Shown here in pieces: positions 10,571 to 37,372 of a stretch of 64,000 nt of DNA (the first letter of the stretch is position 1; each line of letters begins with the position of its first letter). Below the pieces are notes generated by a model. The model ran no database searches and was not told where the DNA came from. It saw only the letters and a program-made list of their open reading frames with translations. The translations under genes were made by a program, and so were the position numbers. Source of the DNA: Psammoneis japonica. Its lineage: Eukaryota. The stretch lies in the NCBI GenBank assembly GCA_008632985.1, contig QPGO01000065.1, positions 62,001-126,000 on the forward strand, given 5' to 3'.

Positions 10571-10614
10571 ACGCAAATGAGGCAGCAGCAAAGGGAAGCG
10601 AGGATTCGCCTGCG

Positions 10615-13600: not shown

Positions 13601-14150
13601 GTTGGAGTTCGCCATCAGCATGTTGTTGGGACAAAAGCAGAAGCTTTGTCCTCCACCGGCTGCATCAATGAAGTGGTGTGCACACAAGAAGCGTCAGAAA
13701 ATGGTGGCTGGCAAGAGGGGATTCTTCGATTTGACCACCTGCGTTGCCGATGACATCGTTTTTTGTCGGTTGACAAACAATCACTGTGTTGCTTTGCATG
13801 GTGGTTGGATCTTCGACTCCAATCATGAATTCGCTCTTCCGGCAAAAGACATTCATTGGTTGAATTGGTGTTTGGGGAATGACACATTTGAAACAGATGC
13901 ACTGGTGGAAGATCCAAAATCAGCAGTGGAGGAAGCAGTTTTTTTTGAAATGCCGAAGGCTGTCCAAACAAGGTTGCGCAAATGCAAGCGGCAAGATGAT
14001 GCAATTGCAGGTCAATTCTTCTTACTTGGCATGGTTGTCGGGGCCAACGATTTCCAGGCATGCAGGCATTTGCGAGTCACCAATGTTTTGCTGACAAGCC
14101 CGGCCTTTTCTGCAGCACACAACAGTTGGCACGTTTGCGGCAGTGTGTGA
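10615..14150 (+). pseudogene. Large cargo protein (frameshift near 12040): acidic N-terminus, GNAT-like acetyltransferase region, C-terminal papain-like cysteine-peptidase-like region
   Basis: ORFs 10615-12054 and 12033-14150. IVDHVRV...NHGLCPFLISLAQ...KQCHCESLGFE resembles GNAT motifs A/B once H/C are reverted to Y. QQGEKDTCVFSSLAS...NHCVALHGGWIFDSN gives a Q-C-H-D arrangement. Confidence 0.5.
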
Positions 14151-15213: not shown

Positions 15214-16509
15214 ATGCAGTGGGAAGCTTCTGTGACAAATCCAGGGGAAAAAATAACAGCACCCAATCGTCCATTGGATTGTCCAAGAGACTTTTTCCAT
15301 CCGACGACAGGGGCTGACCCCACAAGACCAGAGGATGCTGCTCTTTTGTGGTCATGCCGAAAGGCACGTCCACAACTTGGTGAGGTGGAGACGGTGCCGC
15401 CCAATGGCAAGAAGATGCTTCAAGAGGTGGCACAAATCCGGTCGTCCCTTCGACAACACGTCATGACTCAACACCTGGAGGGCTGTCGGAAAAATGCAAT
15501 GGACAAGGAAGTGGCAATGCCATCAACAAACACCAATCCCGTCACAACAGAAGACTTCAAAAACATTCTGGCAAGCATGGACAACACAACCGAGAATCAG
15601 CAGCTCGTGCATCAAGTTTTCCATGCCTTTCATCGCAACAGAGGATGGCTGGCTGCTGCCATTGACAAATGGTTCACCGCAAACAACATGAAGCTCATGC
15701 CGCACGCCACGGACGCTTCCAGCAAACCTCGCAAAATGTGCCGCGATGACAGAGGCGGGTTTGCTGTGGTGGCATGCCAAGCCAAATGTCAAATAATTAA
15801 AACGTTTGTGGAGTTTATGCTGCAGAAAGCAGGCTGGTGTGTGGCAACTACAATGCACAAGAGCAACAAGGAGAATGGAGGTAAAACACATGTGGCCATC
15901 CCCGCTGCAACCAATGTGGAAACAACAACCAAAGCAAAGTTTTACGTCGTGTCGATGAAACCAGTGGCGGTGAGTTAGTCGCACATTGTTTGTTTGTCCT
16001 TTTGTTGACAATCTTGTTTGGTTGATGACTTCGTTCCCATTTCCAGTCCTTGACAGCAGGAGGAGAACACCAAAGCATCAAAACAAGTTGCTCAGGGAGC
16101 ACCCAGCAGAGACATTGACATTGCATCCCTTGTGGACCTTGCGAAAACAGCAAGCATGTTGTCAGAACAAATGGGAGCTCCGCTGTCCAAGGAAGATTTG
16201 CTCCAGTCGATTCATGGCAGCATGACAGTCACCAGTTCATCCCAAATGGTCAACGAAGAGATTGTGCTTGATCCGCAACATGAGTCCAAAACTCAGGTGT
16301 CAACACTGACCATGGACACCGCGCTAAATTGCCCATCCGAACCAACGGCAAAGCGGAAGTTAACCGAGAAGGAGAAGGAGGCAGAGCAAATTCCTCGTCG
16401 GGAGCGCAATGATGAACTAGAACCCCTCACCATGGATTTGGATGTCATCGATGGTTGGAATTCCAATGACGAAGAGTTGGCAGAAATGGTGTCACAGGTG
16501 ACCATGTGA
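15214..16509 (+). pseudogene. Spliced cargo gene of unknown function
   Basis: ORF 15214-15978 ends within a GTGAGT donor at 15970; a pyrimidine tract and TTGACAG acceptor follow at about 16056; coding-like sequence resumes in ORF 16132-16509. Confidence 0.4.
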
Positions 16510-16745
16510 TTTGGTGGTCCAATTGCTGTGGTGTTGGATGGCTCTAACCAACTTCCGCTTTGATGCCTTGTTTGGCTTGTCAGACACAGTTGTCTGGGTC
16601 CCCTTGTTGCAGGACGGAACAAGAGCCCAGGAACGCTCCAGCGGCAAGAAAAATGCATTGTGTCGTGCGGCTGAATTGCACGTTGCTCACACCACTGTTC
16701 TTCATGCGAAAGGTTGATGAGATGGACGAGCCAGCTGGTGCAAAA

Positions 16746-17280
16746 GAAAAGGTGAGAGCATTGTCGGTGCTCCAGCTGTCAATTTGGACTGTTGCTCTAA
16801 CAGCTCTTTGGCCTCATTGGGTTGCTGGATGCCACACCAAACCATCCCAGACAGTTGAAACACTGGAGTGAGCACAAAAAAAACAAGTGAGTGAACAGAG
16901 TTCTGAGGCAGAGCGCGACACATGGATTGGATCAACCAATCACACTGCTCCTGCTGTTCTTTATGACCAGGCAAATGAGGTGGTTGACAGTGGCAACAAT
17001 GAAAAGGTGAGAGCAATGTCGGTGCTCCAGTTGCAAATGAAACAGTTGCTCTGACCACTTTGGGGCGTCATTGCTGGATGCCAGACTCAACCATCCCCAG
17101 TTGCTGAAATGCCAGAGAGAGCACCACAGAAGACGGTAAGATCGCATTGTCTTGCAGCCAACTGTGCAATTCATCAGACACGTCTCACACAGCCATTGTT
17201 GTTTGCAATGAAAAAGGTCAAAGAGACAATGGCAAATGGCGCAAATGAAAAGGTGAGAGCATTGTTGGTGCTCCGGATTG
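16746..17280 (+). repeat. Degenerate ~250-bp repeat, three copies of a GAAAAGGTGAGAGCA(T/A)TGT(C/T)GGTGCTCC core
   Basis: Core starts at 16746, 17001 and 17247. Confidence 0.7.
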
Positions 17281-18104
17281 CCATTGAGAAGTTGATCTAA
17301 CGGCATTCAATGTGTGTCATGATGGCATTTCTTTTGCAGACTCAACCAGCCAACCACTCTAAACCATTGTTAAATCCATTGCAAAACAAAGCGGTGAGAA
17401 TGCATGATGAAGTCGTGCGGATTGTGCCAAGTGTCTTGGAAACATCACCTCTCACTTTGTTGTTTGTTTGCAACAAAGACAAAGACAGCAAATGACAAAC
17501 GCACACACAAAACTGCAACACTCGTTGTGGCTCAAGTGGATCAAACAACTGCTTGCAATTCGCAGGTGTGGAGCAAACGTCATTGTTGATTTGGCATGCC
17601 TGTTGTTGTGTTGTCTTGTTCACGCACGCAAACCAATTGTGTTTGTTTGTTTGTGTTTGCAGTGCAAGTGCGAGGAGGCTCACTTGTTCCATGCCTTGGT
17701 CCATCAAGATGACTGGAAAACATTTTGCTCAAGCGCACTTCAAAACCAACCCACTGTTCCCTGCAAAGTGCTGTGGCGAAAAGTGTGATGTTGTTTTTGG
17801 ATCAAGCAGTTACAAGGTTGGACAAAGAAAGGCAGTTTGGGTTTGCATGAATGCATTGAATGGTTCTTGCAATTGCAGGTTTGCATTGTGTGTGCAGTGT
17901 TGTCAAAAGACCATGTCAGCTGCATCTAACAAACGGCGCCGAAGGACAACCCGAAACAACAACAACAAATGACAAGGCAGCGCAACACATGCGCACGATG
18001 CAACACAACATGTGATTGCTTGGGATTGATTTCACCGGCACAGTCAGGGTTTGGCGGATGTGTTTGTCAACAGAGTCAATCGAAGCACAGCTTCGTAAAT
18101 GACA

Positions 18105-18547
18105 GTCATTCAGAGCATCAGCAAATTTGTTCATAGTTGTGATCTGTTTAAATGGAGAGGCTGTCGTCGTCCGTTGTTTATTCAGAGCTTTGCTCTAGTT
18201 AAATGTCCGTTGTTTATTCAGAGCTTTGCTCTAATTAAATGGAGATTCCACGGGCATCCAAACATCATTCAGAGTCGTGCTCTGATTGAATGGACACAAT
18301 CACAGCAGCGCTCTGAATGTCAGCACAATGCTCTAATTTACAAATTAATGCTCTGAATACAATGCTCTAAATAAAATTCTATGGCTCCGAATAACCAAAT
18401 TTACTGATTGTGCTCTGCGTGGGCGTTATCGCCTTAATTAACTCTTATTTGCTCTGAATGTCCCACATTGTGTCGGGATAATTTAAATAAAGCGTTGCTC
18501 AGAATAAAATATTCGGAGCATAAATGAAGAGAATCTCATCTGCAGTG
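18105..18547. repeat. Right subterminal repeat region (many GCTCT(G/A)A and TCAGAGC motifs in both orientations) and right TIR
   Basis: More than ten copies of the short motif; the same motif occurs at about 778-835. Typical of CACTA subterminal regions. Confidence 0.75.
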
Positions 18548-18673
18548 AAAGCTGGAAGCAACGCGTTCGAGAACTACGATTCACACAAAAAACTTGAAAC
18601 TTGAAAATCAACAACGACAGAAAAGCACTGACAAACAACAGAAAAACCAAGACTCTCAGTCGTACGGCAGACA

Positions 18674-19692
18674 ATGGCCAAGCACTGGGCGAGGCGATAC
18701 AGACTCACAGAGGCGAAGGAAGAAAAAGAGGCGGAGGCCACTGCAGCTGAAGCTGCTGAAGCTGCGGTCGATGCTGCGGTCGATGCTGCTGAAGCTGCGG
18801 TCGATGCTCACTACGGAAACTCTCATACCCCGCTGGTGGTGGGCGGCCTCAGTTTTTGCCGCTCTTCGCTCCTCAGCCGGCAATCGCCGTTCATGACGGA
18901 TGTTATCCATGCCACGCTGGTGGTGTGCGGCCTCCAGCTTTGCCGTTCTACGCTCATCAGCCGCCACTGAACAATCATGTGGCCAATGACCGTGAGAAAG
19001 CTGTGCACTCGAAGCTATTTGAGGAGAGTGAAACGTTGCAGTTTGGGGAAATCGACGGACTATTGAAAACGCTTGGTGAAGTAAAAGGGTTGACCAGCTT
19101 TGTGCATAGCTTGTTGGACTCCGAGGCTGACCTTTCCATTTATCTTGTGGGAACTCACGTGGATCTTTCTGGAGGAGGCATTCGATGCCCCGCAGTGGAT
19201 TTGATTTTGATTCGAAAACCGCATCGTCTTGATAATTGTCTCACAGAGATTGTCGATTCGGACGCTCAGAATGTAAATCACCCGTTTGCAACTATGGGTA
19301 TGGAATGGTACGATGTCAAGACAACCTTGGAGGAGTACCAAGGACGAATCAAAATTTTGCGTGCGTTGGAGAAATTGGAAGAGTTGCCGGTGAATTGCGT
19401 CCCAAAATGGAAAGACAGCAACAGCAATTTCATGCTTGCACCCAGCGTAAATGCAGCGGGAATTGAAACCGTTCTTCGTTTTATTGACACGCACGGCTTT
19501 TTTGTCGACAGCAAGCTACTTCTGGAATCCCTTCAGAATGGTGTAAATCGACACCTGTATCCAGTGTTTGGTGTCTGGTTGAACGGTGTCTTTCATCAAA
19601 GTGGCGAGCTACCTGTTGCAAGCCACACGAGGACGTCCGAGAACCAAAATGCTGTGCGACCTAAGGGGAAAGGTGGCGATAATGGCCCATAA
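18674..19692 (+). pseudogene. Frameshifted/chimeric paralogue of the 42051-43324 gene
   Basis: Shares 5' context AGTCGTACGGCAGACAATGGCCAAG and two of the 84-bp Pro-rich units. The ATG frame (18674) and the repeat frame (ORF 18856-19692) differ by a 1-nt deletion near 18822; the 3' part is unrelated. Confidence 0.65.
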
Positions 19693-19930
19693 GTCTAGAA
19701 ATACCAATAACACCATTATAAACGACACAAGTCTGATGGATTTTGACAGCATCCTAAGTGGCAACAATACGGTAGCGAGGCTAGGGTCTATTAGTTGTGC
19801 TGCAACAGTATACCGTACGACAGTTGGTTCGAAATACTCCTAGTGCACAAAAGCAACACCTCATGTAACGGTATTAAAAGTATTATCAAATGCTAGCTGC
19901 AGTGACATTTATCTCAGCCGCGCGGCGTCA

Positions 19931-22560
19931 TCATCGGTGTGAAGTCAAAGCTGTAACGGCCTTGCATAAAGCCTCGCCAAACTCAAAGGCTTCTTTCACT
20001 GATCGACGAGGAAGCTTGATAAAGTACAGAGGGTGCAAGTTGAAACAGCATACGCACGATCTTTGAGTCGTCGTTTGTTTGTTGCCGCCTTTAAAGATTC
20101 TCATGAAGAAAGGGACTTCATGTGGTGAGCAAGAACCGTCGCGGTGCGACTTTCTGGGTGGACAAAAGGACCTAGCCGCTTTGAAGTCTGCCCCAAACGA
20201 TGCATCTCTATTCGTGTGCTGTGATACTCTAAGTGACGGGCACATGTTGCGTAACAAAGATTGTATGCTATGATTAGCGACGGATAAAGAGAAGTGAAAT
20301 CACACATGACAACCGGATCGTGGTAAACTCCGGACTCGGGCTCGAGAGTAAGTGCCTGGCACTCAAGTGCTTCTTGTCGCCCTGTGTCTTCCCCCGAGGG
20401 CGAAAAGAAAAAGTAACAACTGTCGTCCTTTTGCTACCCTCGCCGTTGTTACGCGTAGCACTGCGTATTTCGGCTGCAAGCTTTCTTCTGAGCTTCCACG
20501 CGTCATGGGTCTGGGACATACTCTAGCTGCTCAAACAGGAAACAGGATCAGTTCCAATGCTTTTGTCATTATTTGAGAACGGATCGATCTGTTCACCTTT
20601 TTTCGGCCCTCTTTCATCTCACTGTATACTTTGTAAAGCTCGAAGTAGAACGCCTTCAACTTTGTACTGACTGCCACGTATACCCGGGAAACTTTGTGAA
20701 AATTCGACTCCACTCAACCTTGCAGCCTCATCTGCTATACCAATAACATACAACGCGTCAAGAAGAAGGAGGCACGCAAATTCTCGACAAAGGCGGAGCT
20801 GCAGGGCTATCCACCTGTCTCTTCAATGGTCGCCACCGTACCACGCCGAGAGGACCCAATCATCGTGGTACGGAATTCATTTGTTTAGAAAAGTAGCAAC
20901 CATCGCCGGTAAGTAGGAAGCATTGGGATGTTTAAGGCAACAATCTTCCATCCACAAACTACCAGCCTTCCCGCAATGGAAGTCGCCGCATCACCCGGGC
21001 CAACTCTCACTTCCAAGGCCACTGCCGGCTTATTGATGATCCCATCTGGTCGATTCGCCTTTTGACACTATTGTAGCACTTGGCTGTTCATCCTTAAAAA
21101 CATCTTTCCTGACGGTGCTTGGTTTTGCTCGTAGAGTTCGACCCAGGAGACGTACCATATCCACCCCTGAAGAGTTAGTGGCCGTCGTGTCGCTTATCGC
21201 CAAGGAATATTTCCCTTGTTTCCCTAGTAATGCGCCACGTTCAAGTATAAGGCATACATCCCAAAGCCCACCTTTAGTATCCCAATCTGACGATTGAAGC
21301 GAGCCTCAGGAGAAGATGACGTTCATTACGAACAGGACATCCGAAGCTTTTACAAATGATTTTTGGAGCATGATTGTTACCATTCTCTTTTCGTTCAGCA
21401 ACATCAATGGCCTCTCCATCTCCGGGATCTCCCTTCAAACGTATACCGATGCAAATATTCTGTCTCTCTCTGAGATTGGCTTCATTGCGATCTCTTTCGA
21501 CTCGCTGATTCCAGTTTTACTGGTCCGGCACTTAGCATGGATTTCAATGGACATTATCGAGAGACACATCGGAAGATCGAAGAAAAATGATAGCTTTTTC
21601 ACTGCAGAACATGCTGAAAGTTGAGGGCGAACACCAACCAGACCTGTGTTCATTGCGTTGCAGCTTTCAATCCTCAGCCACCTTCGACGTAAATGCGTCC
21701 ACCAATCTATCCTATGCCATCTAATGCCTGCGGTGTCTCTTCGACATGCAATTGAGACATGGTAAGGGTTTGTAGGGCACAATCAGCGTGCCTCCTTTGA
21801 TTACTTTGGTTCGAATAAAGTGGCCGTTGCTATGAAGTTGTTCGTGATTGCCCTCTCGCAGTTTCGTCAGTGATGCCAGAGCCTCCAGTCTCCCGTTAAT
21901 CAACTTGCAACGTTCAATGTTGAACTTTGTCTTTGCGGCATATCCTGTAGGCCGCGCCCACGTCTTGGTTCGTTCCTGCTCTTTGGTTTCCACCTCGTCA
22001 TTACTACTTGTCCGTAGTGCAAAGACCACACCGGTACATACGCTGAAAGAGATTCCCCAAGTTCAGCCAGAGCGATGTGGACGTCAGAAAGCTACTAAAA
22101 GCACAGTCATTGTAGGGTCCGATATCATCATGCTTCTAAGGGAATCTGGTAACTTCGCATTGTGAAATAACGCTTAAAAACGACGGACCACTCTGCAAGT
22201 AATCTTGATGGTCTTGACGCACAACTTTTGATAGCATTTGAAATACCCCCTTCTCAGTAACAGTCCAGCAGTCATCATTGGTAGAATCCGAGTCCAAGAG
22301 AGGTCCAAATTCCGACTCCCCCGTTTGTTCAAGAGACGGAAAGGGCTTGATTTGAGTAACTTAAACGCCTTCGATTTCCATGTGTTGTTCTGCAAGGTTA
22401 TCTTTTTGAGAAACAAAATCATCTTAACTGACGTGAAAGGGCTCCCATCAATGGCGACTCCCGAAAACCGATGGGATAGAGTAGATTTAAAATCTGGACC
22501 CTTACCTCTCGATTCGTCTTCTCCCCAAGGAGAGGCAGCTTCTCTGGTTTCCGACGCCAT
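19931..22560 (-). pseudogene. REV3: Decayed DNA polymerase zeta catalytic subunit (family B), many indels
   Basis: Collinear fragments on the minus strand: LSIMSIEIHAKCR (~21550), ERHLLLRLASIVR (~21300), EAARLSGVEFSQSFPGIRGSQYKVEGVLLRAL (~20640-20730), ALECQALTLEPES/YHDPVVMCDFTSLYPSLIIAYNLCYAT (~20245-20370), FIKLPRRSVKEAFEFGEALCKAVT (~19950-20025). The YGDTDS region appears deleted. Confidence 0.85.
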
Positions 22561-22807
22561 GATGCTTGGAGTGCATGGTATTTTGATGTCATCATATGGC
22601 GTTCAACTTCGACCGATTATTCCAACTTTTTTGTTTCGAAAGCCCATAGACATACCATATGCAAAAACGGCTCTGGCACAAAGTATATAATCAATAGCGG
22701 CATTTCTACTTGAACAAAAACAACCCCATATTTCCACTGTTGCCTCCCGCATCACCAGTACTTTCGTTTGTCGAGACAGCACACCGAGCGTTTGCTTCCT
22801 GGGGCGT

Positions 22808-23080
22808 ATGATATGGATGTACACCGACCGTTGTCTTTATGGGAATCATGGCGTTTGCTCGGGAGAGTGTTTCCAAGCCGACTTTGGCCTCGGCTAGAGT
22901 GGAAGACGGCGAGAGCATGGCCACAATGTTGGATTCTTTTACAGCGTCTTGTTGTAAAATATCAAAAGCGGATTTTTCGTCGTCGTGCGGTTCTGACTGA
23001 AAAGAAATGAGATCTTCATGCCACAAGTTGCAGTCCACGTCAATCAACCGGGGTGATGGGGATGGCTGGATTGCTGACAT
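22808..23080 (-). pseudogene. N-terminal fragment of a TatD-family nuclease
   Basis: LIDVDCNL...IKTTVGVHPYH match TatD N-terminal motifs; similarity ends right after GVHPYH. Confidence 0.65.
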
Positions 23081-23314
23081 GATGGTGTGAGCATGAATAA
23101 TTCTACCAATGCGGTGTCTCGTCGTAGTACTCGATATCAGCCTTGTGGAACCAGTTGCTGCAGTCAATGTTGGCACAAAGGAGAGTCTCATTGGCAAGAA
23201 GCGAATTACCAGCAGCGCAACAACAGCTTAGCTCTGTACCCCCCTTTAATAGTAGATCAGTGAACAGCAGATGCCGCTTGCGTACATTGAAGATGATAAT
23301 AAGGAAGAGCGTCA

Positions 23315-23675
23315 TGGCGGACACCACCGCGACCGCGACAGCCGACAGAACACAGCACAGCGCACAGCCACAGACAGATGAGGCCGCGTGCGCATTCGAG
23401 TAAATCTAGCTGCCGAATAGGCTCAGCCACTCACAGTCTTAGTACGATAACGCGAATACAACCGATAAGATGCTTCTAGGCCTGTTACAACTACAACGGA
23501 TGCAACAAGCCTAGAAGCATCTTATCGGTTGTATTCGCGTTATCGTACTAAGACTGTGAGTGGCTGAGCCTATTCGGCAGCTAGATTTACTCGAATGCGC
23601 ACGCGGCCTCATCTGTCTGTGGCTGTGCGCTGTGCTGTGTTCTGTCGGCTGTCGCGGTCGCGGTGGTGTCCGCCA
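23315..23675. repeat. Perfect 167-bp inverted repeat with 27-bp spacer, ending at the N (23676)
   Basis: Arms 23315-23481 and 23509-23675 are reverse complements. Confidence 0.95.
23397..23509 (-). repeat. Unmutated partial LTR (3' 113 bp) of the neighbouring copia family
   Basis: Revcomp aligns without gaps to 29893-30005 with 9 substitutions. Confidence 0.9.
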
Positions 23676-23870
23676 NCGAATGCCGGTCGATCGAAGGGTG
23701 TATGATGATTATCATCGCCTGGCATCAGTGAATGCACGAGCAGTGAGGAGACATGGCGCCAGTCTCCATGCTTCTAATGGCCATGTGTTGTCGTCAACAC
23801 AAACTGAGACATCCTTTTGAATTTATGATTTCTCACATAACTCTGTTTTCCTGCTGGCACAGGTACCACC

Positions 23871-25298
23871 ATGGCGGCTGCTCCTCCGGATCCTATCGAG
23901 ACAGTGCTCGAATGGATCGGATTTGTTGATCCAGCTCAACGAGTCCCGCTCATGGCGGACTTTGCGTCTTTTGACGATTTAGAAGACCTCAAGGAAGAGG
24001 ATGTCGATTCTCTTGCGTCTTCGTACACTAGGAGGACGGTTGCTGAAGGGCGCATTCATTTTGGTTTGGCCCGTAGTCGTCGACTCAAAGCTCTTGCACA
24101 TTGGGTTCAGGACTTTGGTCGCGTGAGCGAGAATCCTGCTCTGGATGGGCTTGATCAAGCCACTTTCCGTGCTGCTCTCCAGATGGCACTTAGTCGCACC
24201 GAGATCCGCTCCCAGACCAAGGCCACTGCTGACTCTTTTGGTAAAGAGGCGTCACCCGGAATGTCAGAGAGCGAAAAGAATTGGGTCAAGTGGAGCACCG
24301 GTTTGACGAATGTGCTTGGCATTGTGCTGGGAGTTTCTGGCGCGCCGTTGGCACATTGCATTCGTCAAAACGATGCACCCGAACCTCAAGGCCACAACAC
24401 TTTCGTCCAGAAGTGCGTTGCATGTGCACCCCTCCAAGGCCCAGCTTTCGAGGCTGATGCTCGTACGGTTCATCTGCTCATCGAGTCCCTGACCACGGGC
24501 ACACCCAGTGAGCAATGGTTGAAGGACCACAAGAATGAACAGAACGGACGAGTTGACTTTAGGGCGTTGTGCGACCATCACCAGGGAGAAGGTAACACCT
24601 CCCGCCGCATCTCTGAAGCCGAGCGCATGGAGAATGCCCTTCATCACAAGAGTGAGCGCGCTGTGCCGTTTGAGTCGTTTGTAAATGAGCTCCAAGAAAT
24701 GTTCAACATTTTTGACAAGAACGACGAACCAAAAACGGAGGCCCAGAAGTCACGGATCCTTTTTGAGAAGACGCAGCACCAATCACTGCAAGCAGTGGTT
24801 GAAACCTTGAAGGTGCAGAATGAGTTTGGAGGAGGCATCACGTTCACCACGGCGGCCAATCATCTTGCCGCCAAAGTCGCCACCCTTCCAGAGATGATTG
24901 CGCATCATCGTGCGATTGCCGCAGTTGCCTCTGGAGGAGGAAGAGAGGGTGGCACCATTTACAATGAGGATGGATCCATCAACACTGGACACCACAAAAA
25001 CTGGCACCAGCTGAGCAAGGAGGACAAACAGAAGGTTGTCGACGAGCGCGTGCGTCCAGGTGTCGCCAAACAACCTGAACCAACCAAACGTCATGCTGCA
25101 TCCGTCAAGTCGCTCAAGAAGAAGAATCGGAAGCTGTCGTTGCAGCTCAAAGAAGCGAACCGCAAAATCTCCGCCCTGAACACTAATGTCAGTGCCGATT
25201 CTGGCGATGATGAATCAAGGGCTGGTGGTGGAGACGGAGATGATGCCGGAGACGCATTCGGTGGTCGCAGCGAAAAGCGCCAAGGAAAGCAGAAATGA
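23871..25298 (+). CDS. gag: Gag-like protein of the CoDi element (open but mutated)
   Basis: 475-aa ORF upstream of pol with CoDi-like GVSGAPLAHCIR and NGRVDFRALCDHHQGEG segments. Confidence 0.85.
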   Translation: MAAAPPDPIETVLEWIGFVDPAQRVPLMADFASFDDLEDLKEEDVDSLASSYTRRTVAEGRIHFGLARSRRLKALAHWVQDFGRVSENPALDGLDQATFRAALQMALSRTEIRSQTKATADSFGKEASPGMSESEKNWVKWSTGLTNVLGIVLGVSGAPLAHCIRQNDAPEPQGHNTFVQKCVACAPLQGPAFEADARTVHLLIESLTTGTPSEQWLKDHKNEQNGRVDFRALCDHHQGEGNTSRRISEAERMENALHHKSERAVPFESFVNELQEMFNIFDKNDEPKTEAQKSRILFEKTQHQSLQAVVETLKVQNEFGGGITFTTAANHLAAKVATLPEMIAHHRAIAAVASGGGREGGTIYNEDGSINTGHHKNWHQLSKEDKQKVVDERVRPGVAKQPEPTKRHAASVKSLKKKNRKLSLQLKEANRKISALNTNVSADSGDDESRAGGGDGDDAGDAFGGRSEKRQGKQK

Positions 25299-25337
25299 CT
25301 GCTGAGCTGGACCCTGCTTGGTTGCATCATAAACTTC

Positions 25338-28300
25338 TTGTTGTGGTTGCCACAATGGGGCGGGGGACAGCCGCATCAATCAAAGGAGCAGTGTCCACGT
25401 GCCTGTGTTGAACGCATCTGTGAGGTTGTCACCTCGACGAGACGTGTCTCGGCAACGCGGTCTGACACCACACGAATCACCCACATCCGTGATGTGAGCA
25501 AGGCACAGCACGGGCGTCTTGAAATGGATTCGCATGCTGACACCAATGTTTTTGGTCAAAACTTTACCCTCTTGGGTTGTTCTGGACGAGAATGTGACGC
25601 ATCGCCTTTTAACGAGGGATGCGAGTCCATCAAGAGTGTCCCAATTGTCTCTGCAGCCACGGCGTGGACTTCACCGACATCGGGAGCAACTTTTGTTCTG
25701 GTCTTCCACGAGGGCTTGTGGATGCCGGAGTCCATGGAGCACTGGCTGGTCAACCCAAACCAGCTGCGGCACTTTGGTGTTAAGGTTCAGGACAACCCCT
25801 GCTCCGATTCGCCACTGCATGTCCTTGCTGAGGACAGATCTTTCATGATGCCGCTTGAAGCTGTGGGGACCAATGTCGTTGCGGCAACTCGCACTCCCAC
25901 AGAGCAGGAATTGCACGAATGCCCCAAGATCCAGATGACCTCCCAACAACCTTGGGATCCACAGACCGTCAAGTTCAAATCTGTTGGAACTCGACGATCT
26001 GCGGAGGAGGAAATGGAGCTAGTTCGGTCAATTGCGACGATCCACACCAATCTGACACACGAGTTCAAAGCTGATCCTGTCTGCAGCAACCCTCAATCCG
26101 GGGACTGTTGCGATGAGCGATTCATTTGTGGAGTCGATCAAGTCCAATCAAGGCTCACAGCCGCCGTCAATGTGGAAATGGAGCCAACAGTCCAGATCTC
26201 CACCACGGAAACAATCGGCGAAGGACCTGAAGACTTGGCACTCCCGAAGACGTTCATGTCTGAGGAGAGACACAGTGACGTGTCGGCTGCTGACTCAAGT
26301 GAACGATGGTGCATGGGACTCAAGCAAGCAGCAAGCACGCTCAAGAAGACTACACAAAAGCTCGTCAGGTCAGCGTTGATGCCCATGGGTCGGCGCTGTC
26401 GGGCCGATCGGATGTTCACAAGGCCCAGGTTACGGGGTGAATGGGCAACCGACACGGCAGACGGCAAGGTGGTTTCGCTGGAGGGCAATCGACATGCCCA
26501 GATCTTTACAAACAAGCAATGCTTCGCTGCGATCTATCCCATGGACAAGAAGAGCAAGGCTGGCAAGGCTCTCAAGACATTTTGCCAGGAATTTGGCGTG
26601 CCAGAGAAACTCCTGATGGACGGATCTAAGGAGCAAACAAAACCTGGCACGGAGTTCATGAAGACCGTGCGCAAGGAGGGCACAGACCATCACATCATCG
26701 AACCTGATCGACACAACCAGAATCCTGCAGAAGGAGTTGTGCGCGAGGTCAGACGCAAGTGGTTCCGCATCATGGTCAAGAAGCAAGTGCTGTGGCGACT
26801 GTGGGGCTGCGGATTTACGTGGACATGTGAGACCATGTCTCGCACGTTCCTTCGAGCACATCATTTGGATGCAGGAGCACCACTGGAGAATGTTCTCGGA
26901 GAGACCGTGGACATCTCGGAGTGCCTCGACTTTGGATTTTATGATTGGGTCTGGCACAGGGAGAATGCCGGTCCAGGGGACGAGAAGCTTGGTGGGTGGC
27001 TTGGTGCATCTCACAGAACAGGGAGTCTCATGTCGCATTGCGTTCTGACACAGACAGGCAGTGTCATTTCGAGAACTTCTGTCCAACGAGTCACCAATTT
27101 GGAAGCCGCTGCTCAAGAGAAAAAGGCAGAGTTCAACAGTTTTGACGAGGAGATCAAGCGACGGTTGAAGGAGCAAGATTTCCCCGATGACGAGGATCAC
27201 AAGATCAGTCCCGAAGACTGGAAAGACTTCCTTGGATGCGACAATGAATTCCTCGATGAGCATGATTGTGCCATGTCCTCAGAGGAGGCAGCAAATGACG
27301 ACGACGACAAGAAAGACGAGGAAGCCTCACCGGAGGCGGCGGACTGGGGATGCATTAACATGGAGGTTGCACTTCCACGAGATGACAATGGTCCTGAGTT
27401 TGCTCGTGTCACGAAGAGGTTGAGAGATGCCAATGGTGTTCTGACAGGAACGGCGAATGACAATCCCATCCTTGACACAAGGATGCATGAGGTAGAGCAC
27501 CCTGATGGGCACCATGCTGTGCTCTCTGCTAACTCCATCGCCATGAACATGTTTGCTCAGATCGACGAGGACGGAAACCGGCACGTCTTGTTCGATGAGA
27601 TCGTTGATTGCCGCACCAACGGGGACGTTCCTGAATCCGAATTCTTTGAGACCGAGCGAGGCGTTCGGAAGAGGCGCAAGACTGCCAAAGGATGGGAACT
27701 TTTATTCCAGTGGAAGGATGGAAGTGCGACTTGGATCGACTTGAAGATTGCAAAGGAGAGCTTCCCAGTCCAAGTTGCCGAGTTCGCCATTCAGCGCAAG
27801 ATCTCGGGTGAGGCAGCGTTTGCTTGGTGGGTTCCTCATGTCATGAAAACCCGCAAGCGTTCCATTGCGAAGGTCAAGTCGAAGTGCTGGCTACGAACAC
27901 ACAAATTTGGCATGCGGATCCCAAAGAGTGTCAAGGAGGCGATCCAGATTGATCGCGCAAATGGCAACACACTGTGGTGGGACGCCATTTGCATGGAGAT
28001 GAAGAATGTGCGGGTTGCTTTTGACAAGCATGAAGGGGAGCTCAAGGACATGGCGCCTGGTTTCCAGGAAGTGAAGTGCCACATGATTTTTGATGTCAAG
28101 TTGGGAGAAAACTTCCGCCGCAAAGCTCGTATGGTGGCTGGAGGCCACACCACTGAAACCCCCGCACACATCACTTGCTCCTCTGTCGTCTCTCGGGATT
28201 CGGTGAGAATTGCGCTGACGCTTGCTGCGCTCAATGACTTGCAAGTCTTTGCATGTGATGTCCAGAACGCCTGCCTCACTGCCCCTTGCAGGGAGAAGAT

Positions 28301-29598
28301 TTGGACCAGAGCTGGGTCTGAGTTTGGCGAAGATGAAGGTTGCATCATGATTGTGGTCAGGGCCCCACATGGATTGAAGAGCTCCGGAGCAGCGTTCAGG
28401 GCTTTTCCAGTGGAGACGCTTTATGATCTAGGGCACAAACCGAGCAAGGCTGATCCGGATGCATGGATGAGACCTGCGGTGAAACCCGACGGATTCGAGT
28501 GCTACGAATGCGTTCTAGTTTACGTGGACGACGTGCTGTCGATCAGCCACGAACCCATGAAGACGATGGATGGCATCAGGTCCAAGTTCAAGCTCAAGGG
28601 TGATGAGGCAGCCGAACCGGATTCCTGCCTCGGTGCTGCGCTTTCCAAGATGACTTTAGCCGATGGGACTGCCTGTTGGGCAATGTCTGCGGAGAAGCAC
28701 TGCAAGTCCGCTGTCCAAAATGTAGAGGACAGGCTCGGCAAGGAGGGGAAACATCTGCCTGGCAAGGCGACAACCCCATTGAGCAGCGGATGCAAACCCG
28801 AGTTAGACACTGCTGGCGAGTTGGACGCTGAAGGACTCCACAGTTGTCAAGAGCTGATTGGCATGCTGGTTTGGGCGGCAGAACTCGGTGGAGTGGACAT
28901 CCATTTGGAGGTTTCGTCAATGTCTGCTCACCTCGCTCTCCCTGCATTGGTCATCTGGAACAGGCATTGCATGTCTTTGCATGCCTTGAACAGGTCCCAA
29001 AGCGTCAAGCAGCATTCGATCTGGCTCATCCCAAGATCGATGAATCACGATTCGTGAAGTGCGACTGGTGTGACTTCTGCCGAGATGCAAGAGAAGCCAT
29101 TCCGACAAATGCACCGCCAGCTCGAGGCAATGCAGCATCGACACATTGTTTTGTGGATGCTGACCATGCCGGAAATGTTGCCGATCGCCGCAGCCATGCA
29201 GGTGTCTTGATGTTTGTCAACCGGGCACCCATTGTGTGGCACTCGAAGCGTCAGAATGCCGTGGAGGCTGGCACATTTGGAGCAGAGATCGTTGCACTCA
29301 AGAGTGCCACAGAGCTTGCAGAGAGTCCACGACACAAGCTTCGAATGTTTGGAGTGCCGATCGAAGGGCCAACAAATGTCTTCTGTGACAATGAGGCCGT
29401 CCACAAGAATTGTTCCATTCCTGAGTCTACACTCAAGAAGAAGCATCACTCCATTGCGTGTCACCGCAACGCGAAGCTGTTGCTGCGGGGAATGTTGGGA
29501 TTGCAAAGGAGGGAACAGAGACAAACCTTGGCGATCTGTTCACGAAGGTCATGTCATCTGTCAGGCGAAATTTTCTGTTAGACAAGTTCGCGCATTAA
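25338..29598 (+). pseudogene. pol: Copia Pol polyprotein (protease, integrase, RT, RNase H); frameshifts near 28942 and 29469
   Basis: MDSHADT protease; DTADG/MDGSKEQ/NPAEGVVRE integrase; RKARMVAGGH, YVDD RT; FVDADHAG, CDNEAV RNase H; stop TAA at 29596-29598. Confidence 0.95.
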
Positions 29599-29773
29599 GA
29601 TGGATGCGTGAAGCGGTGGTGAGTTTCTTCCCCAGTGAGGGTTCACACCATGCACAAAGGATTGGCGGCTTTTCCCTGGCAAGGGTTTTATGTCGATCAA
29701 TGAGTCAAGATGTTTGAGCCAGATCACTGATGCAGCATTGGGTCGAATTGTGCCTTACGAGTCAGGCACATTT

Positions 29774-29782
29774 CGAGGGGAC
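29774..29782 (+). other. Polypurine tract
   Basis: CGAGGGGAC immediately before TG at 29783. Confidence 0.7.
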
Positions 29783-30007
29783 TGAGTGAAATCCGATGTG
29801 TCAGAAACTGTCCAGTGCGCTCTGTGAGTTGAAGTGGCGGAACTGTGACGTGGTGTCGGTGGGAAAGTGACCATGACCATCGATCGGTCTCACTTGTTGC
29901 ATCCGTTGTAGTTGCAACAGGCCCAGAAGCATCTTGTCGGTTGTGTTCGCGTCATCGCACTAAGACTGTGAGTGGCTGAGCCCACTCGGCAGCTAGATTT
30001 GCTCGCA
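29783..30007 (+). repeat. 3' LTR, about 225 bp (TG...CA)
   Basis: Starts TG after the PPT; homology to the second copy stops at CTCG(CA) 30005-30007. Confidence 0.8.
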
Positions 30008-32750
30008 CTGAAGCATTCTGCACTGACTGAAGGCGACAGCCAGGCGGTGACCGTCGGACCCGCTGCGGACTTGTTTGAAAAAGAAGCTCAGATCTCCAAG
30101 AAGAGAAAAACAAGCTTTGCAAAACTTGCTTGTGCTGTGCTTGCACTTGTGCAAACACTGCACTGGGCTGCATGCTGTGGGTTCAGGCACAGCAGATCAG
30201 TTTGAAGCAAGAGCTTGGTCTGGCCACCCACATCTCCTTGAGAGGTGAGCATCCCTGGCAAAAATGTCGGTGTGGTGCCAGCCCAAGCAACTTTTGCCAG
30301 AGGCTGCTGCCACAGGAAAACAAGAGCAGTGCCATGTGTTTTCGTTCTCAAACTGGCAGCACCCCCACGTGGCTGAAAACTTGTTCATTTTTCAACCCAG
30401 CAGGGGCAATGGTGTGGTGCACATTCTTGAGAGCAACCATGACTTTGTGGCAGCAAGTTGTGGTGTGACATTCTCTCTGAACCCACCAGCAATTTGCCAC
30501 AACAAGCTCTTGAAATGTTGCTGCCCTTGTTGTGCACTTTCATGTGTCAACAACAAAGTCAGAAGAGGCTTCAGCGGTGAGCACAGTCCCAGCAAACTGC
30601 CGGGCAGCATCAACTCACACAATGTGGAGAGGACACAAGCCAAGGAGAGGTGGGTGACAGCACAAAAATGGCAGCTGGCAGTGCTTGAGATGCTGTTGCA
30701 ATCTCTGAAGCTTTGTTGGCTGCACCTTTTTGTGTGGGCATGCTGCTGCTCACAGAGTGCTCCTGCAGCTCACTTTGAACAATGGGCGCAGCCAGGGCTT
30801 GCACCAAGCCAATCAACCCAGCAGCAGCACATCTTTTTGGCCAGCAAAATTCAAGGCTTGGTGCAGCCAGCAGCTCAAAAAAAGAAGCTGCTGGACTCAA
30901 AAACTCTCCACAGATGAGAGAGACAACAGAAATCATTCGAAAATGTTGCGTGGGTCACAGTTGACATTTTGCATGAGGAAAAACACAAAATCGTGTGGAA
31001 ATGCACACAATGTCATGCAAGAGAGTGACTGGAGCTAACAACTTTTTGGGAACTGAGCTGAAATCCTGTCTGGTTGACGGCATTGGCCTTCACCATGTGA
31101 ATCAAAATGCCGTCAATCAGATGGCATTTCAACTGATTTCCCGAAAAGTTGACATTCATGTGTGGATAGATGGACAGACTGACAACAATTGTTTTTGGCA
31201 CTCTCCTGCACAATTTCTGCGTGTGACTCTCAGGACCCGAATGATTCCCATTGGAGAGGGACAGGACAGAGACAGAGAGACAGAGAGACAGAGACAGAGC
31301 TGGCTTGTTTGTTGCCAAGTGCCAATGAAGCAAGTTTGCTGCCCAACAAAGAAACTCTGGAATGACAAATTCAAAAAAGTGTCTGGAATGTCACTGAGTG
31401 GAAATTCGTTGCAGAATCAGCACCAGGGGTGTCAAAAAATCACAAAATTCCAGACTTTTCTGGGGCCCTGGTGCTGCGTCTGCAAAACTTTGTTGTTCCA
31501 GAGTTTTTTGAACGGTGGCTTGAACAAGTTGAGCTCATGAGGGCTCCTTCTCAAGATTTTTGGTGATCTTGCATCCCCAAGGAACGCTGCCTTTGTCCAG
31601 CTGTGCTTGTTGTCCCCGTTGCTGAGGCAGCCCACACTTGTCCTCCCACAATGTCCCACCACAATGTTGCATGCTGGTGCTGTGAGCTTGATCCTCATCT
31701 CTGTGTGAGAGCCACTGGCTGTCAAACTTGTTGAACTTTTGCTTGTTTTGCATGTCTGCACTTTTAAGGCTCAAAACACTGGATTCATGCTGAGGCAAAA
31801 ATGTGACTTCTGCACCACCAAAAAGACCTGCCAGATGAACAGGAAGTCCCAAGCAGCATGACAATGAAACATCAAATGTCCACAATTGTGTGTCTTGTGC
31901 AGCTTGCAGCTTGTCTTCAATGGGGCGCACTGGCCCCACAGACACAGAAGCAGTTTTTCTTCTCTGGTCTCAGCTCCTGCCAGGTGCGCTCTGGTCATGC
32001 AACATGCACACAAAGAAGAGCTTTAAAAGGACCTCAAGCTTGCCACCAAAAGTCAGCCTGTTGGTTCAGTGCCCCTCAGAAGAATGGCTCCAATGACACC
32101 CACAACAAAGCAGTGTGTCAGCTGCTCACTGAGTGGAAAGCACCAAGGAGACTGGCTCCTGTTTGTGCCATTGCCGCGCAAGTGTGGAGCAAGCTGGGAT
32201 TTTGTCTAAAAAAACCAACTGTTGTCCCTTTTCTCCCCACAACTCCTTTTGTTTCAAAATGGCAGTGGAAGCCAAAAAGCCATCAGAGAAGCCAAGTTGC
32301 CACAGACACTCTTTGAAAATGCCTGCACTTTTCTCCTGTCTGCTGCCTCACTCTGGGGTTGGGAAGGAGCATTTCACAGCTCTGGTGAATCCACATCTCC
32401 ACTCCAGATGCTCTCAAGATCTGCTTTGCCGGCACCAAATGTCTCTTGGCCCTCCAGGAGCAGCACAATTTTGGCGGTCTCCAGTGCATGATGTGGCATG
32501 GCATGATCGGGCCATCACTGCTGTCTGCCTGTCTGGCAGCAGCTTGCGCACTTGCAAATGTCGGCCAGAGCATTACTGTGGCAGCATGGTGCAACGCAAC
32601 AGGCCTTGCAGACAGAATTCAAGGGCCAGCTTGAGACAGCTTCAACTTTTTTGTGAGCCTTTTGGACGATTCAACATCAACGACAGCTTTGATGTTATGG
32701 AAAATCAAAAATGAGCAGAGGTGCTGTCGACGTTGAAGGTGTTCTCCACA
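30008..32750. other. Heavily decayed, probably TE-derived DNA depleted of both TpA and CpG
   Basis: CA/TG-saturated composition, no recognisable intact domain, abrupt return to normal TpA content at about 32760. Confidence 0.6.
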
Positions 32751-32891
32751 TTCTCTTTGCAGATTTCTGTATTGGAAAGTCGTCTTACTTGCGCGAAACC
32801 TAGAGTACAAGTCTAGTGACATAATCCTAATGTCAGATTTACAATAATTATTCGTCTGCTGCTTCGAGTAGTGTTGTTACTGAGTCACCAG

Positions 32892-34236
32892 CTAGGAGTA
32901 TGGCCCAAACCACGGATCCCCTCCATCATAGGCAGGGTCTCGTTTTCGAAAGCCGGTTTCAAAAATGACAGAAGTGCATTCTACTCCAGCATCACGAATC
33001 ATGGATTCAGTCCAAGCCGCCATACCAGCCTTGTTCTTCATCAATCCGTGGTAATGAAATCTAAATATAGTTCCATCAATGGTCTCCAACAATTCGGCAC
33101 AGCTCCCCAACACATCAAGTACAGGCTGAATCTCTTGCACCAATGCCTGGTCAATTTCTCCCTTTCTCAAGGTACCCACAAGGGTCCCGTAGTCTTCGTA
33201 TGGCTGTCTTTGAGCCTTGTGGTATTCCAATGACTTGCCCTCCGGCAGCCACTCACAATTCTTGGATCGTGCCAGTTCAACGGCACGTTGACGAGCGCGA
33301 TGAGGAGTCATAGAGTCGAAATCTGTCATGTCTTCTGGTTTGGTGAATCGATTGTTGGTGTAGTTCTTTTCTGGATAGGACAAGGCCTCGGGGTATCCGT
33401 GCCAAGTAGCAACGTGACGAGGAACTTGCAATTCCGGAAGAAACGGATCGACGTAGGTGTCAATGATACCAAGCGATTTTCGTAGTTTCACAACGTCCTC
33501 GTTGAATCCAATTTCCAAGTCGTTTTCAGGAAAAACTGGTTCGAGAATAGTGTCGTCTCGTGTGTCATCTGCAATCATGTACGAGTCGATGGGTGTAACA
33601 ATCGTACGGGTGTCAATCGGATTGGATGGTCCAAAGATCGGATCCCACCCCACCTCAATACCTTCTTTATCCTTTTCAGGCTCCTTTACATACTCCAACT
33701 CGTCACTAAGGTCGTTAGGATCAGGATCTCCAGCTTCTGGATCCCACTCGTAATCAAACTTGGATTTGAGATCAAAAATATCATACGTACCCAAGGTTGA
33801 CGAATCAATCGCATCTGGGTCGTCCGTATCAAATTTCAAATTCTGCACCACCTTCTTCTTCCGGATCTCCATATTCATCAATCCATGCAGGATACTTGCG
33901 AACTCCGTCCTCAATTTCTTGCAGGATTTCCGCTTTGCGCTCCAATTGTTCTTCTGTTTCTATGATTGCACCCGGCCTGCCGCCCGTAAGATCGATGTTT
34001 GCCATGTCCGGGCGTTTCGGTTCGACTGCATTCAGCCTCGTGCTTCTTATCCATCTTGCACTGGGTGGTATCCAAGCATGTGATGGACGCAGGCACCATG
34101 CAAGGAGCGCCGCCGCTGAAAGCACATACTGTACGTCATGATTGTTTTTACAGTACCGGTAAGTTACGGTATGTGGTGGGTGATGGCTGGACGGTGTCAT
34201 CGTTCTTTTATTTGTCCTACGCAGAAGTGACGTCAT
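32892..34236 (-). CDS. Acidic protein of unknown function with diatom-type bipartite plastid-targeting peptide; frameshifted by a 7-bp duplication
   Basis: ORF 33829-34239 (VLSAAALLAWCLRPSHA-W, signal peptide plus ASAF-like motif) joins ORF 32892-33914 once one TCAAATT copy at 33829-33842 is removed. Normal Tyr content (14 in 340 aa). Start codon uncertain. Confidence 0.75.
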
Positions 34237-36906
34237 CACTTCCCAAACTTCCGAAGATTTTCATGACCAACGACGGGCTTGGATTCGAGAGCGCGACGTA
34301 GAAATCTACGAAAGTTTTGTACTAGAGAAACGCAAATTGGCTTTCTTGTGGCCTCGTCCGGTGAGAAAACGACGCATCACAGTCACAATGGCGTGTGAGA
34401 CGCAGTGCTCTCCACTCCGTAACTATAAAGATTTGGCTCATGATACGTTGTGAACTTGTTCTATACACTACGAAGTATATTATCATTGCTTGAAGTTTTG
34501 ATTTTTAAGGCAAAGGATCATCATGAGTATTACAATCAAAGTGACGGATGATTTGCAAGTCGCAATTTCGATCTTGTACACAATAGAGCTCCACTCGAAG
34601 TTGTTGAAGCTGGATTTGAAGGATACCAAATCGTTATCGAAGGTTGAATCCGACATGACAAAGTCGGGAGCCTCTGCGGCTCTCCCAAAAGTAGCCATTG
34701 GATGCTCCAGCAAATTCCGAATAGTGCATAGAGAAAGAGTTTGATGTTTGATGGAGCAAAAGAAGCAGCTCCGAGCGAAAATAACAGCTTTGAGCAATAA
34801 AGACACACACCAATCAAACCAGCAGAACGAACCCCTCCTGCTAGTTCCGTCACGTCTTCACCCACCAATTCCAGTCGCCCATCAACTAGAAGAGCTCAAA
34901 AAGAGGCCATGGAAGCGGAAGAGAGCATCCCAGCTCTTACTGAGCGCACCGCTGGCCGCTGGCGAGGAAAAAAAACACGTTCTCACTGTCCATTTCATTC
35001 ATTAAAGATTCAAGATCATATATTTATGTATCTTATAAAATGCATGATAGATAACTTTATGCTAGTCTTCTCTGTCTCATCGCAAAATCGTTTTGCTCAC
35101 GCAACCTTCTGGGACTGCTTTTTCAGCAATCATTGCAGCAAAGGGACTCCCCACGCCCATCGTCCACGTAGACCTCGCCACTTGTTGAGTATTTGAAGGA
35201 CCTTGCCAGAGCTCGAGGATGGCCTTGAGCGGAAGACCGTCTGTTCCCAGGCGAACTTGTAAACGATCAACTGAATGATCAAATTGAAATGTTTTTTAAG
35301 AGTACCGCTGTCAGTAATGTCTTTCTGAAGATGCGTTGCTTCCTCTCTTTTCCCTCGATCGGTGTCCTCCACATGGAAGCCACGGCAGGGAATTCCAAGG
35401 TGTCCAAGCTACGAACCTGCATTGTGCAAGGATATACACCATATTACCATATTGACTTGAGCTCTCAAACTCGGCCTGAAAAGTACAAAGCCATCCATCC
35501 ATGCTCCATGACTGAACCCATCGTGGGGTGTTTCCCTGTCCTTGCCGCAACGACTTCAGCTTCAACAGGACTGTGCGCTCTTCCACTTCCCAAGTTTACC
35601 TGTGTTCGCTCGGGGCTTGCTTCAAAGTGCTCCCTCGAGGTAAAGGAATAAAATGGCACATCGCCACCATTGTCACCGAACTCCGGCCCAAGCATCATTC
35701 CATCCGGTCCTCCCATTCGCTCGGGTCCAAACGCTGTCTCTGGGCCGCTACTGCTCGGATCGAGTTGGCATCCCGTCTTCTGGCCGGCTGTCCTCCAATG
35801 CTAATCCTTTTCATTCTTCTTTTTCTTTTCTTGTTCTTCCGTAATAGAGACAGAACATTAAGTCCCATAGAAAACTGTTGTCCGACTTCGCAAGCTCTGT
35901 AAGCGCTCGTTCGGTAGGATACACAGTCGGGTCGCATCTCCTGGTAGTGCTAGAGTCGTTTCCACCGGTGATCAGAATCGAGTGAAGACGCCTCACCAGC
36001 CTGAAAAAACACTGTACAGTAGATTGCTGTCTCGAAGAGAGACGTTTTTTCCTTTAAAGACCACTCGCATTGGACGCACAGAACGTAGTTAGACACGACG
36101 TATAGTGCCTGATAAGATTGCATGGTATTGCTTGTCAAATGGTAATAGTTATTGAGTGGTAGGCCTCCACATTTCTCACACCATCATGGTGCGGTGTTTT
36201 TTGTGCGGCCGCGGAGGGCGGAGGTGATGAAGCAGGATGGTTCTTGAAACAACCGTGCTTTTCTACGTGCCTCGGTATAAGACCCTGTCCAAACACTATC
36301 ATACGTATGATCATACCTGACGTCATAGCGCCTAAAATGAGCCTCTTCGAAAAAATTAGTGGTTATTAGCCCTATGCATGACGTAATTTTAGGCCATACC
36401 AACTTTCATGAGGATGTTTGTTCTCGCGAGAACAGACTTCCTCGGAAACATCATACCCAAACATCATACCCCACCGACGAAACACGAAAACAACCGATAT
36501 GCATCGTTTTTTTGATACGGCCAAAGCGCATGTGTCTGTATATTATACGAGGCAACCACATGAGACCATGCATGAGCCGTTTGTTGTCTTTGGGGGGCTT
36601 TGTGTGCCATTCTGGACTCTTCTGACACAACCATTTTGCCAAACAGTTTCTTAAAATAAATTCATGTCATACACTCTTACAGACAACTGATTTATCCATA
36701 AGTTATACATAAGCATGATTTTTTTATCGATAGGTGTCCTTTGTATGGCTTATTGTCGCCTTATGGTTGCGTTCTCGTCGTCATGGTCATGTCGTTCTCG
36801 TCGTGTTGTTGTCGCTGGTTCATTCATGTTGTATCTGGTATTGCTTCGCGTACTGTAAGTTTGAATCATTCGATTAAAATGTGTACGTACGAATGTGTTT
36901 GGACAT

Positions 36907-37372
36907 GCCTCGGTATAAAAGGGGATAATTCCTTCTGTTAACGGCTTTTATATCTAAAATTGTCGCTCCTTCGAAATATTTAGTTAACGATCAAAGCGGG
37001 ATGGTTTCTTGAAACAACCGTGCTTTTCTACGTGCCTCGGTATAAAAGGGGATGGCTCCTTCTGTTAACGGCTTTTCTATCTAAAATTGTCGCTCCTTCG
37101 AAATATTTAGTTAACGATCAAAGCGGGATGGTTTCTTGAAACAACCGTGCTTTTCTACGTGCCTCGGTATAAAAGGGGATGGCTCCTTCTGTTAACGGCT
37201 TTACGAACTCAAATTGTCGCTGCTTCGAAATATTTAGTTAACGATCAAAGCGGGATGGTTTCTTGAAACAACCGTGCTTTTCTACGTGCCTCGGTATAAA
37301 AGGGGATGGCTCCTTCTGTTAACGGCTTTACGAACTCAAATTGTCGCTGCTTCGAAATATTTAGTTAACGAT
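36907..37372. repeat. Tandem array of a 127-bp unit, about 3.7 copies; partial copy at ~36233-36280
   Basis: GCCTCGGTATAAAA at 36907, 37034, 37161 and 37288. TpA retained. Confidence 0.95.

Follow-up and report, generated by a model that had tools for sequence, protein, structure and literature searches.

In the chlorarachniophyte Bigelowiella natans, integrated viral DNA is hypermutated at TpA dinucleotides. The main text of a recent preprint (Mettrop et al., bioRxiv 10.64898/2026.01.13.699255) gives 231 single-nucleotide mutations for two integrated viral regions of mutation-accumulation lines, of which 230 are A>G or T>C and lie without exception on TpA. It describes coding sequences low in TpA as enriched for reverse transcriptase (RT) and DDE domains, and it proposes an ADAT2/TadA-like DNA adenine deaminase for this organism. 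Here we describe a 64,000-nucleotide stretch of DNA deposited under the name Psammoneis japonica (assembly GCA_008632985.1, contig QPGO01000065.1, positions 62,001 to 126,000 of the forward strand), to which we refer as the window, and in which the region 23501-30005 is a dead Ty1/copia-type long terminal repeat (LTR) retrotransposon. The element lies in a block of repeats that has very probably been hypermutated at TpA, by A:T>G:C change on both strands after integration.

The locus shares with B. natans the change of A:T to G:C at TpA, yielding TpG or CpA, the regional depletion of TpA with enrichment of CpA and TpG, and the targeting of foreign DNA, which in the preprint's main text comprises integrated nucleocytoplasmic large DNA virus (NCLDV) and virophage DNA with RT and DDE genes among it. 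Unlike B. natans, the host here is probably a diatom or a haptophyte, and the target is a multi-copy LTR retrotransposon together with satellite DNA rather than the single-copy giant-virus insert described there. Depletion is near saturation, with observed/expected (o/e) ratios of TA of 0.00-0.18 as against the 0.45 given for the B. natans NCLDV region, and we see a hierarchy of 3' neighbours and an association with CpG loss that we did not meet in the preprint's main text, although its supplements may hold sequence contexts. The B. natans mutations as reported were seen arising de novo, whereas those described here are known from sequence alone.

Repeat-induced point mutation (RIP) of ascomycete fungi is likewise a blockwise, dinucleotide-specific transition hypermutation that acts on both strands at the DNA level and inactivates repeats. 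However, RIP is a C>T change at CpA that makes TpA and creates stop codons, whereas the A>G change described here destroys TpA and only removes stops. ADARs, fungal A-to-I editing and TadA/ADAT2 share the A>G outcome and the requirement for a 5' U or T, but they act on RNA (tRNA, dsRNA and mRNA); the change here is heritable, is found on both DNA strands, occurred post-integration, includes repeats of a non-transcribed type, and has a pyrimidine as its 3' preference. Our search of the literature on TpA hypermutation found the B. natans preprint alone and no report for diatoms or haptophytes, and the words RIP, hypermutation and dinucleotide are absent from the text of Maumus 2009 (PMC2806351) covered by a term search. 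The mechanism is of a known kind, though one described in a single 2026 preprint, and this is probably a new host lineage for it.

Direction of change at conserved residues of pol

The pol gene of the element occupies 25299-29598 on the plus strand in three frames (25299-28943, 28940-29467 and 29470-29595, with a TAA stop at 29596), which were established by tblastn with two intact homologues, P0001 and P0002. It contains two 1-nt frameshifts and no in-frame stops. A copia-type RT domain (Pfam RVT_2, PF07727) is recognized at 28107-28595 (+), corresponding to ORF (open reading frame) residues 937-1099, with E=6e-10 and a score of 39.6 bits against a cut-off of 31.6; the intact homologues score 67-69 bits. 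Among 5.8 billion proteins searched there are 2585 relatives at E≤0.001, the top one with E=6e-188 and 67% identity, and the best 120 of these all contain PF07727, are 58-68% identical to the window pol, and are mostly ~1200-1420 aa long (range 707-1838).

For the test of direction the three window segments were aligned, unjoined, with 86 homologues of 1300-1430 aa taken from the best 120, and the 658 columns at least 80% identical among the homologues were defined as conserved. The window differs at 108 of these, and the loss of tyrosine stands out: 28 of the 31 conserved Tyr columns are changed (16 to Cys, eight to His and four to Phe), compared with 80 of the 627 other conserved columns (Fisher p=1.2e-20). 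Among the latter, changes affect 11 of 28 Ile, 10 of 38 Thr and two of 33 Phe columns, and none of 22 Trp columns. A leave-one-out control on the 86 homologues gives a mean of 0.23 Y>C/H changes, with a maximum of one, per ~31 Tyr columns. The Tyr content of the window pol is 0.41%, versus 3.6% in the homologues.

A sequence-only reading of the RT and downstream pol region (27880-29470, plus strand), where Y>C, Y>H and L>P changes fall at conserved columns, had proposed that TA is the ancestral state and that the change is one of TA loss. The alignment bears this out, in that conserved TAY codons now read TGY or CAY and the homologues are without Cys or His at those positions; TA is ancestral because Tyr codons cannot derive from CpG and because functional relatives lack Cys and His at these columns. 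The codons quoted in that reading are present as described (GCC CCA CAT at 28362-28370, TGC at 28272 and CAC at 29240), and for six of its seven motifs the columns concerned are 84-100% conserved. The changes at such columns are L>P at 28365 (100% conserved) and 29327 (93%), Y>H at 28368 (100%), 28434 (84%) and 29333 (98%), and Y>C at 28176 (100%), 28272 (95%) and 29459 (94%). The seventh motif, WYSKRQ, is weak: of the 86 homologues, 59 have Y in its column at 29240, 15 have H, 11 have F and one has L, so that functional relatives do carry His at this position. With the exception of column 29240, the objection that close functional homologues might carry Cys or His at the same columns fails, since no homologue has more than one Y>C/H change.

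Each changed residue was also classed by the single nucleotide step that yields the window codon. Among the 108 changed conserved residues there are 30 TA>TG and 17 TA>CA steps, two other A:T>G:C transitions lying outside TpA, five CpG transitions, eight other G:C>A:T transitions, 27 transversions, and 19 changes needing multiple steps. TpA-type steps thus account for ~44% of the damage at conserved residues, although six of the 47 calls of this type have an alternative transversion path (three R>G and three I>M). A:T>G:C change is essentially confined to TpA, with 47 cases at TpA and two elsewhere.

Both DNA strands are affected, TG reflecting A>G on the top strand and CA reflecting A>G on the bottom strand. 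The 16 Y>C and eight Y>H changes show no significant skew (binomial p=0.15), the o/e values of CA and TG across the element are both 1.35-1.48, and a runs test for strand-coordinated clusters of TG and CA along the element was not significant (18 runs versus 22.7 expected, P=0.09). An excess of CA and TG cannot by itself separate TpA loss from CpG decay, because CpG also yields CA and TG. The process removes stop codons and never makes one from a sense codon, and pol therefore stays open; it is inactivated by missense changes instead, namely Tyr>Cys/His, Leu>Pro/Ser, Ile>Thr/Met/Val and Val>Ala.

Timing and extent of TA loss

TA loss acted on DNA after insertion of the element. An apparent 5' LTR remnant at 23501-23593 and the apparent 3' LTR end at 29913-30005 form the only flanking direct repeat found, on the plus strand and with a spacing of 6412. 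These 93-nt pieces are 90% identical, and at each of their nine differences the 5' copy has A or T where the 3' copy has G or C. Because LTRs are identical at integration, these A:T>G:C differences, seven of the nine at TpA, arose post-insertion. TA sites are intact in the 5' remnant, whereas the depleted 3' copy keeps only two, in the contexts CTAA and CTAG.

The same conclusion follows from repeats unrelated to retroelements, because the units of a 281-nt tandem array at 9058-10577 (5.4 units, within another TA-poor block) mix CA and TG. At 11 dinucleotide sites the units are divided between CA and TG, and these sites account for 22 of the 44 variable columns. Such a pair could in principle arise from CpG, but the CpG-polymorphic sites of the array mostly keep CG, and its CpG o/e is ~0.7 versus 0.02-0.04 for TA. 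A third argument for change at the DNA level after insertion is that TA loss ignores element borders: the first ~600-750 nt of the element are spared, and depletion extends to ~32750, 2.7 kb past the 3' LTR.

Across the window TA o/e is bimodal, with 46 of the 64 1-kb segments below 0.3 (median 0.09) and a median of 0.61 in the remaining 18. The TA-poor blocks lie at ~1-18000, 24250-32750 and 44000-64000; the second of these contains most of the element and is CpG-poor too from 30001 to 32750. TA and CA+TG are inversely related among segments (Spearman -0.71), and 28 of the 64, which are contiguous, pass the thresholds of the B. natans preprint (rho TA≤0.43 and rho CA+TG≥1.52). The blocks have TA o/e of 0.00-0.18 and CA+TG o/e of 1.1-1.9, the opposite of the TpA excess with CpA/TpG deficit that RIP would leave. 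The sequence-only reading had excluded classical RIP acting on the other copy, and we reach the same conclusion: C>T change of the RIP type would enrich TA, whereas TA o/e is 0.09-0.18 in the element and 0.5-0.8 in flanking unique DNA. In a control set of distant copia relatives from metagenomes (four loci, 31-48% identity) TA o/e is 0.62-0.83; these four were the only loci found, and the metagenome scan yielded no close relative, either hypermutated or intact.

Loss depends on the 3' neighbour. We compared NTAN frequencies in TA-poor and TA-normal blocks using a multiplicative two-strand model, and the fitted survival of A in T-A-N is 0.075 for T, 0.26 for C, 0.52 for G and 0.67 for A, giving the order of preference TAT>TAC>TAG>TAA. 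Between TA-normal and TA-poor blocks TAA falls from 10.3 to 2.4 per kb and TAG from 8.7 to 1.6 per kb, and because of this many long ORFs are present on both strands. The most extreme stretches, at 30001-32750, 44001-46000 and 50001-53000, have TA o/e of 0.00-0.04, CpG o/e of 0.14-0.28 and CA+TG o/e of 1.6-1.9; they show no mutual similarity at E≤1e-10 and no protein domain. Their combined deficit of TA and CpG suggests that they have resided for a long time in CpG-methylated chromatin.

Alternative explanations and mechanism

The stretch is contained in sequencing runs X1-X3, which represent one sample, are available as contigs only, include no RNA run, and may be the assembly's own data. On 17000-34000 there are 2449 X1 contigs at ≥90% identity and 595 at ≥99%, and the summed word depth, which is not a copy number, is ~870-2870 over the element versus ~60-215 over the unique flank; this indicates that many diverged copies of the element exist. 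Both frameshifts in pol are private 1-nt deletions, because other X1 copies hold an extra C after 28943 (two contigs, depth 493/1548) and after 29469 (three contigs, depth 423/1269). Differences between the window and other X1 copies comprise 75 A>G, 76 G>A, 61 T>C, 52 C>T and 84 transversions. Among the eight best-supported within-element variant places, two are TAs surviving here that read TG elsewhere, five are of CpG type, and one is neither. Two stretches at the edges of the unique island 18700-23300, at 18134-18700 and 23237-24100, combine high summed X1 depth (~870-1400) with normal TA density. Where repeats border on unique DNA, their edges seem to escape TA loss, although depth of this kind is weak evidence.

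The 5' end of the element is unusual. A 175-nt inverted repeat spans 23315-23675, with arms at 23315-23489 and 23501-23675 that are 99% complementary and separated by an 11-nt spacer, and a palindrome arm stands in place of the upstream part of the 5' LTR. The left arm consists of an inverted LTR end plus 82 nt of leader, and TAs are intact in both arms; the window's sole N, at 23666, is in the right arm. The structure has the appearance of a fold-back, which could be a genuine palindromic rearrangement or an artefact of assembly. At the corresponding position of the 3' LTR (~29893-29921) there is a small natural hairpin whose loop is in the opposite orientation. In the leader, TGGCATCAGTGA (23720-23731) resembles TGGTATCAGAGC, which we take to be a copia-type primer-binding site, with one TA>CA change; this putative site is ~125 nt past the apparent LTR end, and the resemblance may be due to chance.

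Several observations weigh against TpA-directed hypermutation of this element after integration. The TA-intact 5' end adjoins the palindrome and its N; it may belong to a younger copy or reflect a join made in assembly, and in either case the argument from the LTR pair would be weaker. Ordinary decay has also occurred, as shown by the four Tyr>Phe changes and by the 46 transversions and multi-step changes, and CpG decay has left its trace in five of the 108 changes and five of the eight within-element variant places. The context fit takes the TA-normal blocks of the window as the ancestral composition. Lastly, the accuracy of the sequence is without independent support, because the sole runs derive from one sample that is perhaps the source of the assembly.

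We considered whether adenosines might instead have been edited in the transcript, by an ADAR- or ADAT-like activity, and the edits made permanent through reverse transcription whenever the element retrotransposed. An A>G change with a 5' U matches the neighbour preference of ADARs as quoted in the Discussion of the B. natans preprint, and the target is a retroelement that is apparently multi-copy in X1 (the 2449 contigs noted above). This explanation is improbable. Editing of genomic RNA gives no sense-strand T>C change, yet there are 17 TA>CA steps and eight Y>H replacements; the LTRs, identical at insertion, now have seven TpA differences; the units of a non-retroelement tandem array show independent CA and TG outcomes; and TA loss extends 2.7 kb beyond the element. 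ADARs prefer G as the 3' neighbour, whereas the preference here is for T or C.

An artefact is a little less probable again than RNA editing. TpA base modification in repeat chromatin, or an error of base calling, polishing or assembly, could in principle be read as G or C, and the presence of an N and a palindrome at the 5' end of the element, in a sequence found in one sample only that may be the assembly's own, is consistent with some such problem. However, Logan contigs of X1 reproduce the TA-poor sequence (595 at ≥99%), a two-strand miscall should raise CG too and CG is not raised, and the loss is incomplete and graded by the flanking base in an element that also shows ordinary decay and frameshifts. 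A matching signature was verified as true mutation in the B. natans lines, as stated in the main text of that preprint. Processes without TpA specificity, whether GC-biased gene conversion among repeats, CpG-methylation decay alone or compositional selection against TA, are very unlikely, even though GC is 50.9% in TA-poor blocks against 47.6% elsewhere in the window and some blocks do show CpG decay: gene conversion of this kind is not TpA-specific, and only two of 49 A:T>G:C transitions fall outside TpA; Tyr codons cannot arise from CpG; and selection against TA would spare conserved RT residues. We give least credence of all to the reverse direction, in which CA and TG are ancestral and an RIP-like C>T change at CpA made TA in other copies or in the 5' LTR remnant. 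The LTR pair taken alone is neutral as to direction, but Tyr is conserved in the 86 homologues and reduced from 3.6% to 0.41% in the window pol, and the TA-poor blocks are well under the unique DNA of the window (median o/e 0.09 versus 0.61).

TpA-directed A:T>G:C hypermutation of the dead copia element and its surrounding repeats, acting on both strands after integration, remains in our judgement very probable. Its chemistry would be the deamination of adenine to hypoxanthine in DNA, the agent would be a polynucleotide adenosine deaminase requiring a 5' T, and the enzyme responsible is most likely a DNA adenine deaminase. We infer that such an enzyme would be targeted to silenced foreign or repeat chromatin, because the blocks with the strongest TA depletion are also CpG-depleted.

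Neighbouring features and implications

The element resembles Ty1/copia elements of marine protists (CoDi-like) in its RVT_2 domain, in the order of gag-like ORF and pol, in its flanking direct repeat, and in being 58-68% identical to pol proteins of ~1400 aa from marine metagenomes. The window copy differs in being dead: it contains two frameshifts, its 5' LTR is truncated, and ~16% of its conserved residues have been replaced. The gag-like ORF at 23841-25298 (+) encodes 485 aa and is TGA-terminated, has no Pfam match, and by eye is Tyr-poor and His-rich. Pfam searches gave no match to rve or any other integrase profile in the window pol or in the intact P0001 and P0002, and a PDB sequence search of 26301-27299 found nothing relevant. 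There is no second copy of the element within the window by self-BLAST or tblastn, the sole internal pair being the 93-nt LTR remnant, and Rfam and tRNA scans of the window returned no matches. Bacillariophyta is the commonest phylum in the Atlas clusters nearest to the RT, from few records, which is only a lead towards placement in the CoDi clade of diatom copia elements.

Pfam searches of 39 long ORFs of the window gave no match, with the sole exception of the element pol (RVT_2). Two of the long ORFs in TA-poor blocks are nearly Tyr-free. One, at 12030-14147 (+, 706 codons), has 61 weak relatives (best E=3e-25) that have in common an unannotated ~270-aa domain, whose Cys/His motifs look by eye like those of a cysteine protease; no informative Pfam domain was found in the 11 relatives scanned. 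The other, at 56088-58478 (+, 797 codons), has no relatives at E≤0.001.

Several features lie in TA-normal DNA. An exon-sized ORF at 35080-35295 (-) matches the diatom pyrenoid shell protein PF25192 (PyShell; E=3e-11), and the Atlas clusters nearest to this fragment are haptophyte and diatom; the available text of a preprint places PyShell homologues mainly in diatoms and haptophytes, with some in other stramenopiles and alveolates (bioRxiv 10.1101/2023.10.25.564039). The fragment marks the host as a diatom, a haptophyte or a comparable red-plastid alga, and therefore probably not as a chlorarachniophyte. At 20104-20433 (-) a stretch of 83 aa matches family B DNA polymerase in isolation (PF00136, E=7e-16, profile positions 44-126 of 453). 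The 46 minus-strand ORFs searched nearby contain no further pieces of this polymerase, and the match may represent part of a gene or one small exon of a gene with many introns. A tandem unit of ~84 nt is common to 18794-18966 and 42741-43165, in inverted relative orientation and with 78-92% identity, and a further tandem repeat is found at 36903-37372.

A broader proposal is that a diatom or haptophyte, and hence a red-plastid alga, defends its genome by TpA-directed deamination of adenine in DNA, a 'reverse RIP' that nears saturation on LTR retrotransposons, satellites and unannotated repeats, has a T-A-pyrimidine preference and is coupled to CpG-methylated chromatin. We advance this tentatively, rating it as a serious possibility that falls slightly short of an even chance. 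The conserved-residue test of direction provides evidence for TA-directed hypermutation that is independent of mutation-accumulation lines, and the hierarchy TAT>TAC>TAG>TAA offers a testable fingerprint for the enzyme, which would be a natural DNA adenine editor.

Should the host prove to be a diatom or a haptophyte, the process is no chlorarachniophyte curiosity, and ecologically dominant algae would be affected. The Tyr-poor orphan ORFs of repeat blocks would be explained by it, and gene prediction would be biased, since with the loss of TAA and TAG ORFs of 700-1250 codons remain open. If the broader proposal is true, stop-codon erasure would fill assemblies with long spurious ORFs, and TpA-directed deamination would be an old and widespread genome-immunity system of marine protists.

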